A stretch of DNA of 41,171 nucleotides. Origin: a virus. Taxonomy: Duplodnaviria > Heunggongvirae > Uroviricota > Caudoviricetes. The position numbers and the translations under genes were made by a program. The stretch covers positions 1 through 41,171 of IMG/VR virus record IMGVR_UViG_2778261424_000010. One strand, given 5' to 3'. This document shows, piece after piece, positions 4,689 to 33,088 of the stretch. Every line of letters starts with the position of its first letter. The stretch's first letter is position 1. The notes under the pieces were generated by a model, which saw nothing but the letters and a program-made list of their open reading frames with translations, was not told the origin of the DNA and did not search any database.

Positions 4689-4816
4689 CAGTGAAGAGTC
4701 CTCCCGATGGCGACGGCGTAAAGGCGTTTTGCTTCTTCCCACGCCGGAGCATTGCGATGGAGCACCGCGAACGACGCGAGCCGTTGGGCCTCTCTGATCT
4801 GCTGCTGGTTTACCAT
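4688..4816 (-). CDS. 42-aa hypothetical early-left protein (not in the ORF track)
   Basis: ATG at 4816 preceded by AGAGGAAATC. Translation: MVNQQQIREAQRLASFAVLHRNAPAWEEAKRLYAVAIGRTLH. The stop is coupled to the next start (TGATG). Confidence 0.35.
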   Translation of the reverse strand: MVNQQQIREAQRLASFAVLHRNAPAWEEAKRLYAVAIGRTLH

Positions 4817-8790: not shown

Positions 8791-10213
8791 AATCCTGACC
8801 GTACCCCACAACGTCGAAGCAGAGCAGAGCGTCATCGGCGGACTCCTGCTGGACGATGACAACAGCGAGCGTGTTCAAAAAGTGCTGGCAATGCTCAAGC
8901 CTGAGTCGTTTTACATCCGGGTTCATCAGATCGTCTTTGCTGAATTACGTGACATGTTCCGAGCTAACAAGCCAGTCGATGGGTTGACGCTTTTCGACTC
9001 TCTGGAAAGCAAAGGACTTACGGAGCAGATCGGCGGTTTCGCCTACATCGCGCAGATCGCAAAAAACACACCGAGCGCTGCAAACATCGTGGCATACGCT
9101 GCATCAGTCCGCGAAGCCGCAATGGAGCGCTATGGCATCAGCCGACTGACCGAAGCTACTGAGCTGCTGTATTCCCGCAATGGCATGAGCGCCACGCAGA
9201 AGTACGAGGCAATTCAGGGTGTTTTCACCCAACTCGCAGACCATTCAAAAACCGGAAGTCGTCGTGGGTTGCGGTCGTTCGGCGAGGTTATGGATGACTG
9301 GGTGGCAGATCTGGAGAAGCGATTTGACCCTTCAGGCGAACAGCGCGGAATGAGTACCGGAATCCCGTCACTCGACCGACTGCTGGCGCCGAAAGGTCTG
9401 GTTAAAGGCTCTCTGTTCGTGATTGGCGCAAGGCCAAAGATGGGCAAGACAACCCTATACGGGCAGATGGCGATCAACTGCGCGGTTCGTGAGAAAAAGC
9501 CAGCGCTGATGTTCAGCCTGGAAATGCCAGGCGACCAGATCCTCGAAAAACTGGTTGGTCAGAAGTCGGGCATTAACCCGAGCATTTTTTACATGCCCGC
9601 CACGGATGATGCCGATGACCAGTACCAGGGCGACTACGACGGCGACTTTAAGAAAGCGATCGCCACAGCCGGTCGGTTGAGTGAAATCGACATGCTATAC
9701 ATCGACGACACTCCAGGCCTGTCACTGGCGCACATCGTTAGCGAAAGCCGCCGAATCAAGCGCGAGAAGGGCTGCGTAGGAATGATTCTGGTTGACTACC
9801 TGACGCTGATGACCGCCGAAAAAGCCGACCGTAATGACCTGGCCTACGGGATGATCACCAAAGGTCTGAAGAATCTCGCAAAAGAGCTTGGCTGCGTCGT
9901 CGTGCTGCTGACCCAGCTCAACCGCGAACTGGAGAAGCGAGTGAATAAACGCCCGTTACCGAGCGATTCCCGCGACACAGGACAGATTGAGCAGGACTGC
10001 GACTACTGGGTTGGTATCCACCGGGAAGGTGCTTTCGATGACAGCGTGCCGCCGGGAGAAACCGAGTTAATCCTGCGACTCAATCGCCACGGCAGTACCG
10101 GAACGGTTTATTGCAATCAGATCAACGGGGCAATTTACGACACAGACCAGCAGGCCGCCGCCGCAGAACGCCGCGGGCGTGAGCAGCAGCCGAAAAAGAA
10201 AGGGGGATTCTGA
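8780..10213 (+). CDS. dnaB: DnaB-family replicative helicase
   Basis: 477 aa from ATG 8780. The N-terminus VPHNVEAEQSVIGGLLLD, the Walker A GARPKMGKTT, and the DnaB C-terminal motifs (LTQLNR) are present. Confidence 0.9.
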   Translation: MTSEILTVPHNVEAEQSVIGGLLLDDDNSERVQKVLAMLKPESFYIRVHQIVFAELRDMFRANKPVDGLTLFDSLESKGLTEQIGGFAYIAQIAKNTPSAANIVAYAASVREAAMERYGISRLTEATELLYSRNGMSATQKYEAIQGVFTQLADHSKTGSRRGLRSFGEVMDDWVADLEKRFDPSGEQRGMSTGIPSLDRLLAPKGLVKGSLFVIGARPKMGKTTLYGQMAINCAVREKKPALMFSLEMPGDQILEKLVGQKSGINPSIFYMPATDDADDQYQGDYDGDFKKAIATAGRLSEIDMLYIDDTPGLSLAHIVSESRRIKREKGCVGMILVDYLTLMTAEKADRNDLAYGMITKGLKNLAKELGCVVVLLTQLNRELEKRVNKRPLPSDSRDTGQIEQDCDYWVGIHREGAFDDSVPPGETELILRLNRHGSTGTVYCNQINGAIYDTDQQAAAAERRGREQQPKKKGGF

Positions 10214-10557
10214 TGACCATAACAATCCACGGGCAGATTCATGCAGCCCTGCGTAACAACCCGGGCCTGAACAGTGCTCGTATTGCCAGCATGATCGGCA
10301 TGACCACCAAAAAGATTTCCGGCCCGTTAAGCACGTTGTTTGCAGACGGCCTGATCGAGTTCGAAGGTAAGCATGGCCAGCGGCTGTATCGGCTGACCAG
10401 CTACGGAATGAAATACGCACCGGAAACCATACCTGCCATGCCGAAGGGTAATTCGAAGCTGGTGCAGCGCACAGAGAAAAACGTGATCTGCCAGGAGTGC
10501 CGCAACAGCGCGGCTATGAAGCGAGTATTGATGGTTTGGGGGAGGGCAGGGGTATGA
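10213..10557 (+). CDS. Hypothetical protein with a winged-helix-like N-terminus
   Basis: 114 aa with a start coupled to the dnaB stop (TGATG). LNSARIASMIGMTTKKISGPLSTLFADGLIE looks like a MarR-type wHTH. Confidence 0.55.
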   Translation: MTITIHGQIHAALRNNPGLNSARIASMIGMTTKKISGPLSTLFADGLIEFEGKHGQRLYRLTSYGMKYAPETIPAMPKGNSKLVQRTEKNVICQECRNSAAMKRVLMVWGRAGV

Positions 10558-14379: not shown

Positions 14380-14516
14380 CATTTGAATCCTGTTTTTCCG
14401 ATCACCTCCGCGTTCGCTGGCAGCGGCTTCGCTTATACCACTTTCCCGGCTCTGTGCTAACGGACTACCGGATACTGAAGAATTACGTGAAAACTTATGC
14501 TGGAGAAGCGCTATGA
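14376..14516 (+). CDS. ylcG: YlcG-like small protein (not in the ORF track)
   Basis: 46 aa: [46 protein letters not shown]. It has ATGA coupling to both rusA and Q, the same position as ylcG in DLP12. Confidence 0.45.
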
Positions 14517-15295
14517 ACCTTGAAAACACAGTGAAATACCACTTCGCTAAATCCACACTGATTAGCGATTCTCCGCGCGCTACCGCCTCCGATTCACTGA
14601 CCGGTACCGACATAATGGCTGCCATGGGCATGACGCAGGAACGCGCCGCAATGGGTTACAGCGCCTTCCTCGGCAAGATGGGCATAAGCAATAACGACCG
14701 GGATCGGGCGATCGGTCTGCTGGCTGAGTACGCGATGACAAAATGCGACAAGGTTGCCGCACTGCGTAAGCTCGGTGCCGCGGTTAAACCTCAGGTGATG
14801 CACCAGTTGGCCACCTTCGCTTTTGAGGACTATTCCCGCAGCGCTGCCAGCGTGAAGCAGTGCGATTGTTGTGACGGTCAGGGCTTCATTGAGGCTGACG
14901 TGTTTACCAATAAATTCCGTAAGCCAGAAGGGAGAATGACCGTGTCCGGGATGGTGAAGGTCAAAGAATCCATCAAAGTGCTATGCAAAAAGTGTAATGG
15001 CTCTGGTGTGGTTAGTGCTTCTTGCAGTGATTGCCATGGGCGCGGCAAGGCAGTGAACCAGGCTCTTACTGAGAAACAGGGCGTTCCTGTTCTGGCTGAC
15101 TGTAAGCGCTGCGGAGGGCGTGGGTATGAACGACTTCCGTCGACTGAAGCCTATGCTGCTGTATGCCAGATTACTGACGCCATTAGCCTGGACACCTGGA
15201 AAAAGTCTGTTAAGCCATTCTACGACCTGCTGATCACGAAATTTGATATCGAAGAGTCCTGGGCCGAAAAACAGCTTAAGCAGATAACGCGGTAA
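14513..15295 (+). CDS. Q: Late antiterminator Q (phage-82/DLP12 QuuD family) with four CxxCxGxG zinc-finger motifs
   Basis: 260 aa. The N-terminus [33 protein letters not shown] and the C-terminus TWKKSVKPFYDLL parallel QuuD. The central motifs are CDCCDGQG, CKKCNGSG, CSDCHGRG and CKRCGGRG. Confidence 0.85.
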   Translation: MNLENTVKYHFAKSTLISDSPRATASDSLTGTDIMAAMGMTQERAAMGYSAFLGKMGISNNDRDRAIGLLAEYAMTKCDKVAALRKLGAAVKPQVMHQLATFAFEDYSRSAASVKQCDCCDGQGFIEADVFTNKFRKPEGRMTVSGMVKVKESIKVLCKKCNGSGVVSASCSDCHGRGKAVNQALTEKQGVPVLADCKRCGGRGYERLPSTEAYAAVCQITDAISLDTWKKSVKPFYDLLITKFDIEESWAEKQLKQITR

Positions 15296-15394
15296 CGCCT
15301 ATAGCGATAGCCTATGATTTTGTCTTGGGCTATTTACTTTTCCCGAATCTGTGTTAATTTTGTCCCAACGATGGGTTAATGCCTTCGTTTCAAG

Positions 15395-15422
15395 CCCTGC
15401 GGATAACACCGTGGGGTTTTTT
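15395..15422 (+). terminator. tR'-like terminator downstream of Q
   Basis: CCCTGCGG-ATAACA-CCGTGGGG is followed by TTTTTT. It lies about 100 nt after the Q stop, analogous to the lambda 6S RNA terminator. Confidence 0.65.
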
Positions 15423-15499
15423 GCGTTTCTGGAGACAGCAATACCAAGGTTCGAGACATTCAGGTAAAATTGATGCATTACAGGATGTGAGGTTGGGGA

Positions 15500-16069
15500 A
15501 TGAATAATCTACCCGATGATTACTTTTTGGATGCGGACGACGAACTCGTTGCTTTTCTGGAGAAGCAGGGCGAGGATTGTATACGCGAAATTCACCAGTC
15601 CAACGCACTAAACAAAGAAAATGGCCAGAAGTTATTGAGTATACTCATTGCTGGCGTGGGCTCGTCATTTTTGTTATTAACGCAACGTACAGGTTTTGAT
15701 TACCTCACCGCTGGAATGTCTGTTTTTTTAGTCTACTGGGCAATGTGTGCGGCTTATCTTGTTCGCTGCGTCCTCGTTGTAAGGTCACGAGCTCTCGTGT
15801 CATCGACACCCTATGCGCTTTACCATGATGGCTATAAAGGGTTTACTGAAGATGATTACACTGGTTTTGAGTCGAAAGGATTTTCAGGAAAGCGTTCAAC
15901 ATTGAACGTCTTGCGGCGCTACCGGCTTGCGGATTTAACCAGAATGGCTGAAATGAGTAAAAAAGAGAATGCCAGAATAGGCCGAGAACTAGAAAGGGTA
16001 AGGATCGCTACAATCCTCACCCCTGTTTGTGCACTTGTAATCTCAGTACTTACTTACCTTTTTTTCTGA
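15500..16069 (+). CDS. Moron-encoded 3-TM membrane protein, unknown function
   Basis: 189 aa, SD GAGG. TM segments: LLSILIAGVGSSFLLL, MSVFLVYWAMCAAYLVRCVLVV and the C-terminal IATILTPVCALVISVLTYLFF. The gene is AT-rich and lies between tR' and the holin. Confidence 0.7.
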   Translation: MNNLPDDYFLDADDELVAFLEKQGEDCIREIHQSNALNKENGQKLLSILIAGVGSSFLLLTQRTGFDYLTAGMSVFLVYWAMCAAYLVRCVLVVRSRALVSSTPYALYHDGYKGFTEDDYTGFESKGFSGKRSTLNVLRRYRLADLTRMAEMSKKENARIGRELERVRIATILTPVCALVISVLTYLFF

Positions 16070-16199
16070 TGTTTTCAGCAGAATCGGCAACAAAGGTATA
16101 ACCTGTCCTCAGATTTCTTTCGGCTGGCTGTGGAGCCGGTTTAGGCTGTGGTGCGGGTTGAGGCTTATTTTCTCCAGATGGTTTGTTTGATTCACTCAT
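16050..16199 (-). CDS. 49-aa Pro-rich mini-protein converging on the 189-aa gene (not in the ORF track)
   Basis: ATG 16199 preceded by GGAGAATTAT. Translation: MSESNKPSGENKPQPAPQPKPAPQPAERNLRTGYTFVADSAENIRKKGK. The last 20 nt overlap the 3' end of the 189-aa ORF. Confidence 0.35.
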   Translation of the reverse strand: MSESNKPSGENKPQPAPQPKPAPQPAERNLRTGYTFVADSAENIRKKGK

Positions 16200-16291
16200 A
16201 TAATTCTCCATGTTTGATAGGGTTATTTTTGGCGATTTAACGATATCAAATACAGTGATTTGCTGCTAGAGCATGCACTTATCTATAACTC

Positions 16292-16317
16292 GCCCCGGCA
16301 CCCGCTGGGGCTTTTTT
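16292..16317 (+). terminator. Rho-independent terminator upstream of the lysis cassette
   Basis: GCCCCGG-CACCCG-CTGGGGC is followed by TTTTTTATTT. Confidence 0.65.
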
Positions 16318-16433
16318 ATTTCCGGCTCACGGTAATCATCCGCTACGTGCTTTGTTGATAAATCCAACCCGTGAAGCCTGAGCCTATTTCCCCTCATACC
16401 TGAGAGGACTCACAGCAATTAAGAGGGGGCTAA

Positions 16434-16820
16434 ATGTCCGATCCAATTTCCGGTACTGGGCTGGCTGGTGGTGCCCTGACGGGTGCCAGTGTTTATGGAC
16501 TGCTGACCGGAACTGATTACGGCGTTGTATTTGGCGCATTTGCAGGGGCTGTATTCTACATAGCAACAGCAGCGGATCTGAGCGCATCGCGCCGACTGGC
16601 ATATTTTATCGTGTCGTATATTGCCGGGATCCTTTGCTCTGGGTTGGTTGGCTCCAAGCTGGCAAGCTTGACCGGATACAGTGATAAACCTCTGGATGCC
16701 ATTGGTGCCGTAATCGTATCTGCTTTAGCCGTTAAGATCCTGACGTTCCTGAATAATCAGGATATCGGGTCGCTGGTGGCGCTCATAACGCGCCGGGGAG
16801 GTTCAGGTGGAGCTAAATGA
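16434..16820 (+). CDS. Holin-like Gly-rich multi-TM protein
   Basis: 128 aa with 3-4 predicted TM helices. It is the first gene of the lysis cassette. SD AGAGGGGG. Confidence 0.55.
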   Translation: MSDPISGTGLAGGALTGASVYGLLTGTDYGVVFGAFAGAVFYIATAADLSASRRLAYFIVSYIAGILCSGLVGSKLASLTGYSDKPLDAIGAVIVSALAVKILTFLNNQDIGSLVALITRRGGSGGAK

Positions 16821-17088
16821 CCCGACAGCAACTATAAACGCGCTGTTATGTGCTTGTGTTGTTATTACTCTGATGTTTTATCGTCGTGGTGATTCGCGGC
16901 ATCGTCCTTGGGTTTCACGTTTAGCCTGGCTGATTACTGTTACATACAGTGCTGTTCCGTTGGCCTATCTCTGTGGGATTTATCCCCATTCCTCATGGCC
17001 CATTATCGTGGCGAATACTATTTTTCTTTCCGTGCTGGTGGCCGTCAGAGGCAACGTTGCACGCCTGGTTGATCATCTGAGGCACTAA
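16807..17088 (+). CDS. Second holin/antiholin-like membrane protein
   Basis: 93 aa with 3 TM helices and a GTG start after GGGGAGG. It overlaps the previous gene and is coupled to the endolysin (TAATG). Confidence 0.5.
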   Translation: MELNDPTATINALLCACVVITLMFYRRGDSRHRPWVSRLAWLITVTYSAVPLAYLCGIYPHSSWPIIVANTIFLSVLVAVRGNVARLVDHLRH

Positions 17089-17702
17089 TGAACCAACAAT
17101 TATTTCAAAAGGCGGCTGGTATCAGCGCCGGACTGGCTGTGCGCTGGTTTCAACCAGTAGATGCAGCGATGAAAGAATTCGGCATTACAGCACCCGCGGA
17201 TCAGGCCATGTTCATCGCTCAGGTAGGTCATGAGTCAGGCGGCTTTAGCGCTGTAGTTGAAAATTTGAACTACACACCATCTGCGCTGGTGGCGACCTTC
17301 GGAAAGAGGATCACACAGCAGCAGGCTGATGCGCTTGGCAGAACAACCGAACACGCAGCCCGCCAGGATGCTATCGCCAATCTGGTGTATAGCAACCGCC
17401 TGGGTAACAAAGCGCCCGGCGACGGCTGGAAATATCGCGGCAGAGGGTTAATTCAAATCACTGGCCTCGACAATTATCGCACCTGCGGGGCTGCTCTGAA
17501 GTTAGATTTGGTGACTTCACCTGAACAACTGGAACAGGAACTACAGGCTGCGCGCTCAGCTGCATGGTTCTACACCTCTAAAGGCTGCATGATCTACGGT
17601 GCCGATATTAATCGTGTTACTCGCATCATTAACGGCGGTCTGAACGGTATTGAGGATCGTAAGGTCCGATACAACAAGGCGCGGGCGGCGCTGCTGGTAT
17701 GA
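17088..17702 (+). CDS. Endolysin, glycoside hydrolase family 19 (chitinase-like)
   Basis: 204 aa. FIAQVGHESGGF...YRGRGLIQITG...INGGLNG are classic GH19 endolysin motifs. Confidence 0.9.
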   Translation: MNQQLFQKAAGISAGLAVRWFQPVDAAMKEFGITAPADQAMFIAQVGHESGGFSAVVENLNYTPSALVATFGKRITQQQADALGRTTEHAARQDAIANLVYSNRLGNKAPGDGWKYRGRGLIQITGLDNYRTCGAALKLDLVTSPEQLEQELQAARSAAWFYTSKGCMIYGADINRVTRIINGGLNGIEDRKVRYNKARAALLV

Positions 17703-30831: not shown

Positions 30832-33088
30832 CGCAGATACGATTAAAGATTTCCTTGTTTCGCTGGGATTCGATATCGATCAGGCTGGCGCTAATAAGTT
30901 TGAAGCCGTGCTGAAAGGCGTTACAGCTAACGTTCTGAAGGTCGGCGCGGTGGTGGAAGGCGCAGCGCTGAGCATTGTCGGATTTACCACTCAGATCGCG
31001 AACGGTCTGGATAAAATTTACTGGGCATCCCAGCGGACGGGGGCCAGTGTCCAGGGCATCAAAGCGCTGGGATACGCCGCATCGCAAACCGGTGCCAGCG
31101 CCGAGTCGGCTATGTCCTCCCTCGAAGGGCTGGCCGGTTTCATGCGTAGCAATCCGGGCGCGGAAGGCTTCCTGAACCGCCTGGGCGTCCAGACTCGCGA
31201 TGCCAGCGGAAAGATGCGTGATACTGCGGCCATCTTTACTGGCGTTGGGCAAAAGCTCAACAACATGCCGTATTACCGCGCGAAACAATACGCGCAGATG
31301 CTTGGCATCGATGAAAACACGCTGATGGCGATGCGGCGCGGCATGAATGGCTTTACCGCCGATTACCAGTCGATGCTGCAAAAGACAGGGTTCAACGCTG
31401 ATAAAGCGGCTGTTCAGTCCAACAAATTCATGACGTCCATGCGCGGGCTTACGTCGCTGTTCGGCATCATGCGGGACAAGATCGGCTCAAACCTCGCTGG
31501 TGGCCTGGCTGGTTCGCTGGACAGCCTGCGGCGGCGCATCCTCGACAATTTCCCGAAGATTGAAGAGACGCTGACCAGAGTTATTAAAGGCGTGATCTGG
31601 CTTGCGAACGCATTCACGAGAATGGCGTGGCGGCTGATACAGGGCGCTGGCTCTGTCATCGACTGGTGGAAGCGTCTTGACGATGGCAGTAAAAATCTGC
31701 TGAAAATATTCGGTGCTCTACTTGTCGCATGGCGTCTGCTTAATTCTGCGTTCCTGAAATCCCCGATTGGAATTATCACCACGCTGATTCTGGCGATCGG
31801 ATTACTCTATGACGATTATCAGACGTGGAAAGAAGGCGGTAAAAGCCTGATTGACTGGTCCAAGTGGGAGCCTGCAATAGAAAAGGCGAAAAAGGCAATT
31901 CTCTGGCTGCGCGATAAGCTTCTGGGGCTGAAAGATTCTGTTGGTGGATGGCAGAACTCGCTGGAAATTTTGGCTACTTTCATCGCTGGGGTATGGGTAA
32001 CAAAAGTATTGGGAGCATTCGCAAAAATATCCGGTCTTCCGATACCTCCATGGCTTAAATTATGGGGAGCGTATGCTGGTTACCTGGTTTCAGATCGTGA
32101 AAACATAAAAGCCAGTGCTAAATCATCTTTGGACTATACCAAAAGGAACATTGGTGATGCTCTTGCTACGGTTGGCATCAAAACCGACCTTGGGCGAAAA
32201 GATGTTAGCGAGGTAAGAGAATGGCCCGCATGGATGGATTGGCTGCATGGTGGCCCAGGTAAGATTATTCGTCAGGCGCAAAGCAATGGCGTCGTTTATG
32301 GCGATAATGTTCAGCCTGACATTCCCGGGGCGGAACAGCATGTTCGTAGTAATGAAATTGCCCCGCATGAAAGAGATGAAATAAAAAACCGTCAGCAGGC
32401 TGCTAATGGTTATCTTGAAAAAATCTCAGACGGGATTGCCAAAATCGGTAATTTATTTTTCTCCCCGGTTGGAGCTGCTGAAATCTCTCCAAATATATCG
32501 GGTGACCCCTCCCAGTTTGCGCAATCAGTCAAACGTCCACAGGCCACAGCCCAGGGCAAAGTATTGCTCGACTGGATGGGGCCAATGTTCAATAAACTTG
32601 AGTCGCTTTATCAACTTCCAGCTGGTCTATTGAAAAGTGTGGCGATAACCGAGTCAGGTGGTAACCAGTTCGCCATGTCCGGCGCAGGCGCGAAAGGTCT
32701 GTTTCAGTTTATGGATGGTACGGCGCGCGACATGGGCCTTCGCGGAAACGATGTATTCGACCCGCAAAAGTCAGCTCAGGCCGCAGCTAAGTACCTCAGC
32801 CAGCTGTTGCGGCAGAACGGCGGAGACCTTAGCAAAGCACTGGCATCATATAACTGGGGGATCGGGAATGTTAAGCGCTATGGCATGGGGTTAATGCCGC
32901 AGGAAACGCGTAACTACATTCCGAAAGTAATGAGCAACATGCCCACCAGCGCCCCGGTGATTCAGCAGGAAACGAATATTAACATCCACGGCGTTTCCGA
33001 TCCGCGCGAGGCTGCCCGTTTGACTGTTGATCGTCAAAAGGGCGTGAATTCACAGTTAACCCAGCAACTCCCCGCAGGACCGAGATAA
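30821..33088 (+). CDS. Tape measure protein with a C-terminal lytic transglycosylase (SLT) domain
   Basis: 755 aa with central TM-like and helical segments. The SLT signature ITESGGNQ...GLFQFM...AAAKYL...YNWG lies at about nt 32627-32890. Confidence 0.9.
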   Translation: MSGNADTIKDFLVSLGFDIDQAGANKFEAVLKGVTANVLKVGAVVEGAALSIVGFTTQIANGLDKIYWASQRTGASVQGIKALGYAASQTGASAESAMSSLEGLAGFMRSNPGAEGFLNRLGVQTRDASGKMRDTAAIFTGVGQKLNNMPYYRAKQYAQMLGIDENTLMAMRRGMNGFTADYQSMLQKTGFNADKAAVQSNKFMTSMRGLTSLFGIMRDKIGSNLAGGLAGSLDSLRRRILDNFPKIEETLTRVIKGVIWLANAFTRMAWRLIQGAGSVIDWWKRLDDGSKNLLKIFGALLVAWRLLNSAFLKSPIGIITTLILAIGLLYDDYQTWKEGGKSLIDWSKWEPAIEKAKKAILWLRDKLLGLKDSVGGWQNSLEILATFIAGVWVTKVLGAFAKISGLPIPPWLKLWGAYAGYLVSDRENIKASAKSSLDYTKRNIGDALATVGIKTDLGRKDVSEVREWPAWMDWLHGGPGKIIRQAQSNGVVYGDNVQPDIPGAEQHVRSNEIAPHERDEIKNRQQAANGYLEKISDGIAKIGNLFFSPVGAAEISPNISGDPSQFAQSVKRPQATAQGKVLLDWMGPMFNKLESLYQLPAGLLKSVAITESGGNQFAMSGAGAKGLFQFMDGTARDMGLRGNDVFDPQKSAQAAAKYLSQLLRQNGGDLSKALASYNWGIGNVKRYGMGLMPQETRNYIPKVMSNMPTSAPVIQQETNINIHGVSDPREAARLTVDRQKGVNSQLTQQLPAGPR

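Follow-up and report, generated by a model that had tools for sequence, protein, structure and literature searches.

Prophage morons rank among the main sources of novel functions in defence, exclusion and virulence, and the slot following the terminator tR' carries Shiga toxin. In the DNA analysed here (the window, that is, all 41,171 nucleotides (nt) of the Caudoviricetes record IMGVR_UViG_2778261424_000010), this slot holds a gene for a membrane protein of 189 amino acids (aa), called the big gene in the following, and, on the opposite strand, a proline-rich 49-aa mini-gene that converges on it. The locus raises the question whether the two open reading frames (ORFs) form a unit, and what such a unit might do. 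As far as sequence comparison can tell, the cassette is a mobile two-gene phage accessory module (moron). With regard to its function, we tentatively favour a self-contained moron whose antisense mini-gene would hold back a membrane effector, in the manner of a toxin-antitoxin, abortive-infection or exclusion system. For this explanation we infer promoters, transcript extents, toxicity, contact between the two proteins and a defence phenotype.

Linkage and coding capacity of the gene pair

The two genes and the Shine-Dalgarno (SD) motif of the mini-gene are located as follows.

15500-16069, plus strand: 189-aa membrane-protein gene, from the ORF list
16050-16199, minus strand: 49-aa proline-rich mini-gene (ORF-list frame 16050-16211, 53 aa; start at the internal ATG at 16199)
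16206-16209, minus strand: SD motif GGAG of the mini-gene, read off the sequence

The coding sequences share the 20 nt at 16050-16069. An earlier reading of this DNA, made from its letters alone (the sequence-only reading), had described the 189-aa ORF, the convergent 49-aa ORF and the 20-nt overlap, all of which were confirmed. It had also credited the 49-aa ORF with a good SD motif and a proline-rich product, which agrees with the GGAG and with the encoded sequence, MSESNKPSGENKPQPAPQPKPAPQPAERNLRTGYTFVADSAENIRKKGK. An upstream ATG at 16211 is a second possible start.

The window was compared with loci from phage records, GTDB genomes and IMG/VR. A convergent mini-ORF overlapping the 3' end of the big gene was present in 88 of 88 enterobacterial loci with an intact big gene. 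Thus, the 189-aa gene was never seen without its partner; the sequence-only reading had named absence of the mini-gene from most homologues as a finding that would refute it, and this was clearly not observed. In 66 distinct cassettes the overlap had a length of 20 nt (40 cassettes), 32 nt (11), 26 nt (8), 35 nt (5) or 23 nt (2). The reverse search, started from two mini-protein clusters, led to a 189-aa gene with a 20-nt overlap at every place with enough flanking sequence. The pair is flanked there by Q genes and by holins, the families of which vary. Judged from these comparisons, the two genes are obligately linked, and the convergent 3' overlap is itself conserved. An apparent truncation of the mini-ORF in locus L087 was rejected as a sequencing artefact (N or homopolymer), and two loci were unusable as evidence of decay, L010 with a frameshifted and L009 with a truncated big gene. 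L010 (Leclercia adecarboxylata NCTC13032, 4001-4572) has a big gene spread over three frames next to an intact mini-ORF; either the membrane-protein gene is truly decaying there, or long reads have introduced homopolymer errors.

The coding capacity of the mini-ORF was analysed with 30 cassettes encoding big proteins that were less than 90% identical. Between pairs, divergence amounted to 0.42 at the first, 0.34 at the second and 0.59 at the third codon position, and the codons with a one-base difference contained 4120 synonymous versus 3319 non-synonymous changes. The frame of the mini-ORF had 0 stops, whereas the other five contained 1.2-5.5 per sequence. Nearly all of the 66 distinct cassettes have a purine run resembling an SD motif before the ATG; L048 has an assigned start without one. 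In addition, the C-terminal peptide motif described below was kept through differing codons. According to these comparative data, the mini-ORF is a real, coding and conserved gene. It has been left uncalled in many genomes.

The pair is also found at a larger evolutionary distance. A full scan with a hidden Markov model of the big protein yielded 97 representative clusters and reached relatives of 160-190 aa at about 25% identity, the named sources of which include Achromobacter, Burkholderia and Sulfuritalea. The gamma- and beta-proteobacterial big proteins are homologous (hhalign probability 99.1%, E = 5.5e-19). All 13 of 13 beta-proteobacterial loci (L094, L096, L098 and L102-L111) contain an unannotated convergent, proline-rich mini-ORF of 29-47 aa, which overlaps the 3' end of the big gene by 30-65 nt and has the consensus M(S/T)SSNNKPVVPxPQPVYRGPxKDGFNK. 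Homology between the gamma- and beta-proteobacterial mini-proteins was not established by hhalign (22%, limited to the N-terminal MSxSNKP). On sequence grounds, they appear to be positional analogues that have position, orientation, overlap, composition and an SNNKP-like start in common. In the Achromobacter phage relative L096, a tRNA-like sequence (…GGTTCGATTCCCGCAGCCCGCTCCA) just downstream of the cassette, at about 4700-4790, was spotted by eye.

The encoded proteins

Residues 1-43 of the 189-aa protein have a net charge of -8. Hydrophobic stretches are located at about residues 44-62 (marginal on the Kyte-Doolittle scale), 70-93 and 169-187, and a loop of about 70 aa (95-166) carries a net charge of +5. 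The AlphaFold2 model, computed with a 32-sequence alignment, reached a predicted local distance difference test (pLDDT) value of 81.5 and consists of three long helices (14-61, 68-92 and 134-188). The protein is thus predicted to reside in the inner membrane, with an acidic cytoplasmic N-terminus, a hairpin of the transmembrane helices (TM) 1 and 2, a basic cytoplasmic loop and a C-terminal TM3. The same order of acidic N-terminus, TM hairpin, loop of about 70 aa and C-terminal TM helix had been proposed in the sequence-only reading, and charge, hydropathy and modelled helices fit it. An invariant RRYRL-type motif (R140-x-R142-L143) lies within the basic cytoplasmic loop.

The family of the 189-aa protein comprises 115 clusters at 90% identity, with about 189 aa each, and every one of them is annotated as hypothetical. 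It is distributed over Escherichia, Klebsiella, Salmonella, Citrobacter, Enterobacter, Serratia, Yersinia, Proteus, Morganella, Providencia, Pantoea, Pectobacterium and other genera. The sole PHROG match of the protein is phrog_11870, of unknown function. It had no NCBIfam match and no Pfam match, the latter even when 32 family members were searched at E <= 5. Holin profiles were likewise not matched in that Pfam search, whereas the neighbouring genes match holins clearly, and no SLATT profile was among the weak Pfam matches of the 32 members. We presume a loose architectural resemblance to SLATT-type effectors with two transmembrane helices; a profile match was not obtained. In PADLOC-DB 2.0, no family matched the 189-aa protein or the mini-protein at E <= 1. 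Fold searches with the 189-aa protein returned generic helical bundles alone and no informative fold.

The mini-protein family contains 78 clusters with lengths of 47-64 aa from the same taxa. Its conserved parts are an N-terminal MS(E/Q)xNKP, a spacer rich in proline and glutamine, and a lysine-rich tail. The C-terminal motif is (D/R)(F/N)xx(G/R)Rxx(V)GDSA(D/E), with a form F-x-V-G-R-x-x-V-G-D-S-A that is followed by the basic tail. Modelled alone, the mini-protein was predicted to be disordered (predicted template modelling score 0.14). It matches phrog_14506, listed in PHROGs as of unknown function, and has the RefSeq accession WP_162842358.1. It belongs to no Pfam, NCBIfam or PADLOC family and matched no informative fold, and tblastn against the phage collection gave no match, probably owing to low-complexity filtering.

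Transcript architecture and insertion slot

Conserved blocks are found upstream of both genes, and plus-strand terminators lie on both sides of the pair.

15392-15425, plus strand: tR'-like intrinsic terminator (15392-15419, then a T-run), the first after the late promoter PR', from terminator scan and folding
15459-15487, plus strand: conserved block 5' of the big gene (putative promoter and 5' untranslated region (UTR)), from an alignment of 29 diverse loci
15465-15470, plus strand: -10-like TAAAAT within this block
15476-15487, plus strand: CATTACAGGATG, within the same block
15489-15492, plus strand: SD motif GAGG of the big gene, 5' of the start at 15500
16222-16269, minus strand: promoter-like block of the mini-gene, from alignments
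16240-16248, minus strand: extended -10 TGATATCGT, TGnTAnnnT pattern
16263-16269, minus strand: weak -35-like CTAGCAG in the promoter-like block of the mini-gene
16292-16317, plus strand: intrinsic terminator of the plus-strand unit (stem 16292-16311, then TTTTTT), from scan and folding

In most loci, TTCAGGTAAAAT is located 34-42 nt 5' of the big-gene ATG, and 24 of 30 diverse loci have a TAnnAT at a distance of 34-53 nt, mostly 34-42 nt. The pattern TGnTAnnnT occurs 39-57 nt, mostly 46-50 nt, 5' of the mini-gene ATG in 26 of 30 diverse cassettes. A contiguous block 5' of the mini-gene, CTGGCGG-N-TCTGATATCGTTAAATCGCCAAAAGTAAC, is more conserved than coding DNA. Because the reading frame across the promoter-like block varies by locus, its conservation is at the DNA level. 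Transcription of the mini-gene would be expected to start near 16233. Sites for LexA, CRP and IHF in this block were sought by eye and rejected. Most cassettes, among them L003-L008 and L010, have an extra conserved hairpin, GCCAGA-N7-TCTGGC (about 3745-3765 in L003), between the promoter-like block and the plus-strand terminator. It overlaps the -35-like CTGGCGG and is absent from the version in the window, which has CTAGCAG.

The terminator scan found 5 sites, compared to 1.4 expected from shuffled sequences. Folding energies were -19.1 kcal/mol (z = -3.5) for the terminator at 15392-15425 and -17.5 kcal/mol (z = -3.9) for that at 16292-16317, and a plus-strand terminator is present at the equivalent position in 21 of 30 diverse cassettes. 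The sequence-only reading had described the unit as bounded by terminators. Two strong terminators do flank it; they are not one per gene, as both act on the plus strand. Therefore, the mini-gene and its putative promoter are in effect nested in the 3' UTR of the big gene. The terminator at 16292-16317 lies upstream of the mini-gene promoter and thus cannot end the mini-gene transcript. The earlier proposal that the two mRNAs are antisense at their 3' ends turned out to be too narrow: a plus-strand transcript that runs to 16292-16317 would be complementary to the entire mini-gene, putative promoter included. The idea that the 3' overlap acts as a bidirectional terminator or structured element was rejected, with z values of about 0 on both strands. 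Rfam contained no family matching the window or the cassette, and a sub-threshold NsiR1 match on the terminator was treated as chance.

The cassette differs in composition from its surroundings, with a G+C content of 0.43-0.46 versus 0.52-0.59 in the flanks, in line with the AT-richness that had been noted in the sequence-only reading. The left flank (15296-15434) and the right flank (16311-16390) match HK225 (L011), E. coli KL53 (L012) and mEp237 (L013), which contain between them one of two unrelated genes (137 aa, minus strand; 213 aa, plus strand) or about 250 nt without a gene. Since the flanks are conserved up to 15434 and from 16311 onwards, the variable region comprises about 15435-16310, and the terminator at 16292-16317 forms its right edge. 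The terminator stem differs with the content of the slot; the T-run and the sequence downstream are conserved. These alignments indicate that each cargo carries its own terminator stem and that the tR'-to-holin slot is a hotspot of recombination.

Insertion between sites that are adjacent in relatives (the HK225, mEp237 and KL53 flanks), a differing composition and an own terminator were all found, and these are three of the four features by which morons are recognised. The fourth, an own promoter, is putative and represented by the conserved motifs TAAAAT and TGnTAnnnT. The cassette also occurs in other surroundings. A same-strand Q gene belonging to one of three Pfam Q families is located upstream in 73 of 88 loci, most of which have the cassette directly before a holin. 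In L050 and L056 it follows major-tail, Rha or tail-chaperone genes, in L031 it is located between cII/replication genes and a holin, and the beta-proteobacterial relatives have tail or terminase neighbourhoods. In every context checked, the big gene points in the same direction as the late genes. On plasmids the 189-aa family is rare (2 of 72,556 records).

The window represents a lambdoid-regulated E. coli prophage, the cassette region being 99.9% identical to strain AR_0119, in which RefSeq calls both cassette ORFs hypothetical. Upstream of the cassette lies the entry into a lambda-type late operon, which was recognised from a Q gene matching PF03589, similarity to PR'/qut and, after these, the terminator at 15392-15425.

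14513-15295: Q antiterminator gene, PF03589
15333-15381, plus strand: lambda-type late promoter PR' (-35 TTTACT at 15333-15338, -10 at about 15354-15360)
15367-15381, plus strand: qut/pause block CAACGATGGGTTAAT, aligned with lambda

The DNA directly after Q, including CAACGATGGGTTAAT, aligns to lambda 44510-44600 (PR'/qut), and this stretch is kept in HK225, mEp237 and E. coli KL53. The PR'/qut block is thus context and not cargo of the cassette. Downstream of the cassette, two holin genes (PF16931 and PF05449) and a GH19 endolysin gene follow. Together with the Q gene and the PR'/qut alignment, the holins support the earlier assignment to the tR'-to-holin slot of Shiga toxin (Stx) phages. 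A zinc-finger segment of the DnaJ type, CXXCXGXG, is part of Q (PF00684, E = 6e-9); among 27 neighbours upstream of the cassette, 5 show this combination with PF03589. The holin genes (Phage_holin_8, 128 aa; Phage_holin_3_7, 93 aa) are consecutive and overlapping (16434-17088) and may form a holin/antiholin or two-holin pair, judged by their families; the GH19-type endolysin gene lies 3' of them (17088-17702).

Possible functions of the cassette

The sequence-only reading had already likened the pair to toxin-antidote or exclusion modules. According to the explanation that we tentatively favour, the plus-strand unit would start at its own -10-like promoter, or be transcribed by read-through from PR', and would cross the 189-aa gene, traverse the mini-gene and its promoter in antisense orientation, and stop at 16292-16317. 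The mini-gene would be fired in the opposite direction by its extended -10, and its transcript would re-enter the membrane-protein gene from the 3' side. During lysogeny, the mini-gene would hold the membrane protein down by interference of convergent transcription and by antisense pairing; probably, the disordered basic mini-protein would also bind the membrane protein at its acidic cytoplasmic region. If the restraint were lost, or if Q-modified polymerase swept in from PR' at induction, the membrane protein would accumulate and act on the inner membrane. In this way, the pair would operate as a toxin-antitoxin, abortive-infection or exclusion module. The strict linkage, which extends to the beta-proteobacterial relatives, the coding mini-ORF, the conserved promoter-like motifs upstream of both genes, the predicted cytoplasmic helical domain and the disordered mini-protein with its basic tail are in favour of this explanation. 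So are the signs of an autonomous unit, namely flanks shared with phages that have other cargo or none, low G+C content, a plus-strand terminator behind the cassette and occurrence outside the Q-holin slot. Labile antitoxins are often disordered.

Several results weigh against restraint of a membrane effector. No homology to a known toxin, antitoxin, holin or defence protein was found in Pfam (with 32 members), NCBIfam or PADLOC, and a 189-aa toxin with a protein-coding antisense partner fits neither the type I nor the type II definition of toxin-antitoxin systems. About 6 of 30 diverse loci lack the TAAAAT motif of the big gene. A generic sigma-70 scan found no promoter in 15200-16500, and therefore both promoter assignments rest on conservation. 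Finally, neither the scan nor folding revealed a terminator or a significant structure for the minus-strand transcript of the mini-gene. It is possible, if doubtful, that the cassette belongs to an ancient, undescribed class of two-gene phage modules with either/or expression, in which membrane-acting defence or killing would be controlled both through RNA (type I-like) and through protein (type II-like), and which would extend from enterobacterial to beta-proteobacterial temperate phages.

A rather unlikely alternative is that the two genes cooperate in a non-toxic device for lysogenic conversion or superinfection exclusion. A membrane anchor or gate and a cytoplasmic adaptor would be made together in the lysogen, and the overlap would be compact packaging. 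Conserved promoter-like motifs for both genes, their strict linkage and the moron-like nature of the cassette would be expected of such a pair, and exclusion is the typical role of inner-membrane proteins from prophage morons, for example HK97 gp15 and P22 SieA. However, two promoters that face each other across about 770 bp without an intervening terminator should lead to interference and not to co-expression. Furthermore, the overlap is kept over a very large evolutionary distance although intergenic lengths vary, which suggests that the overlap matters, and neither PHROGs nor PADLOC revealed similarity to known superinfection exclusion (Sie) proteins.

We consider it unlikely that the cassette has a late-phase phage function, such as lysis timing, a membrane change before holin triggering or late exclusion, with expression by Q-antiterminated read-through and a mini-gene that mainly silences leakage in the lysogen. 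The co-orientation of the big gene with the late operon in all contexts checked would fit, as would the same-strand Q upstream in 73 of 88 loci, most with the cassette directly before the holin. The roughly 6 of 30 loci without the -10 motif would depend on read-through, and the big gene is the first after tR', where leakage would peak. Against this, close relatives have no cassette or unrelated cargo in the slot, and thus it is not a core lysis function. In addition, several unrelated holin and endolysin families are found as neighbours, as are tail modules far from lysis genes, and it would stay unexplained why a silencer encodes a conserved protein.

It is very unlikely that an RNA is the active product, either an antisense regulator or an Hfq-type small RNA cut from the plus-strand 3' UTR that ends at 16292-16317, with merely incidental translation of the mini-ORF. 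Nearly every locus has an open ORF with an SD motif before it, codon position 3 varies most, synonymous changes outnumber the others, different codons preserve the C-terminal peptide motif, and no Rfam family was found. For an RNA function speak the contiguous block of about 29 nt at 16222-16250, which is the most conserved non-coding DNA of the cassette and is followed by the terminator on the plus strand, the combination of hairpin and terminator in other loci, and the fact that regulatory RNAs are known from the Stx-phage version of the slot. That the 49-aa ORF arose by chance, or was annotated in error, beside an ordinary hypothetical membrane-protein gene can hardly be true and was rejected as far as sequence evidence reaches: its length of only 49 aa and the empty, filtered tblastn search of the phage collection are outweighed by 78 protein clusters, presence in 88 of 88 loci and a clear coding signature.

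Several known systems resemble the cassette in part. Like lambdoid morons in the sense of Hendrix and Juhala (stx slot, from PR'-tR' to the holin), it is a discrete insert of lower G+C content with its own terminator and promoter-like motifs, and it is mobile across unrelated backbones and positions. However, a classical moron is a single unit of promoter, gene and terminator, whereas here a second coding gene with a putative promoter is nested in antisense orientation between the stop codon and the terminator. Type I toxin-antitoxin systems with a convergent 3' overlap (Enterococcus par Fst/RNA II; Bacillus bsrG/SR4, txpA/RatA and yonT/SR6) share the prophage location, the membrane-targeted product and a convergent partner, the transcript of which would have to pair with the 3' part of the mRNA. 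Their toxins are single helices of less than 60 aa and their antitoxins non-coding RNAs, in contrast to a 189-aa protein with a cytoplasmic domain and a conserved 47-64-aa protein, and there is no sequence relationship. Thus, the pair departs from type I in the size of the presumed toxin (189 aa, three helices) and in its coding partner. Convergent transcription with complementary 3' regions, a third feature of type I, is predicted from the ORFs, which converge and overlap by 20-35 nt (30-65 nt in the beta-proteobacterial relatives). It departs from type II in that the genes are convergent, no DNA-binding or toxin domain was found in Pfam or NCBIfam, and the mini-protein is predicted to be disordered.

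With RexA/RexB of lambda, SieA/SieB of P22 and gp15 of HK97, the cassette has in common a small polytopic inner-membrane protein as a prophage accessory factor and, in the case of RexAB, a cytoplasmic partner. These systems differ in that they are not homologous, are co-directional, occupy other genome positions and have folded partners instead of a disordered proline-rich peptide. In the Listeria excludon, a transcript encodes one gene and is antisense to a neighbour of divergent function, leading to either/or expression; its long chromosomal antisense RNAs cover whole genes, whereas the element described here is a mobile cassette of about 0.85 kb known from its sequence. A literature search by accession, PHROG identifier and topic found no description of the cassette or its proteins; the 189-aa family is uncharacterised and the architecture is unusual.

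The cassette is widespread, with more than 100 clusters at 90% identity in many genera of Enterobacterales and relatives in phages of the Burkholderia and Achromobacter type. With its architecture it lends itself as a compact model of switches based on convergent transcription and of the control of membrane effectors by small proteins. A true defence or toxin-antitoxin module would establish a new family between the type I and type II definitions; otherwise, the pair would still be a clear case of under-annotation of small phage genes.

Two further observations concern the records used. The record L002 (PP818812.1, 'Actinobacillus phage vB_Apl-pPE4', 47,508 bp) has a late region that is typical of enterobacterial lambdoid phages, and its tblastn score and identity equal those of H37 (CP100067.1, an E. 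coli 'plasmid' of 47,704 bp), so that the host assignment of the former or the plasmid label of the latter looks doubtful. In the immunity/replication region of the window, at about 9664-10221 (matching 30951-31508 of the E. coli record L100), a gene carries the RefSeq name 'toxin YdaT family protein'; it is adjoined by a gene for a small transcriptional regulator, with RecE/RecT genes further along, all according to annotation alone.

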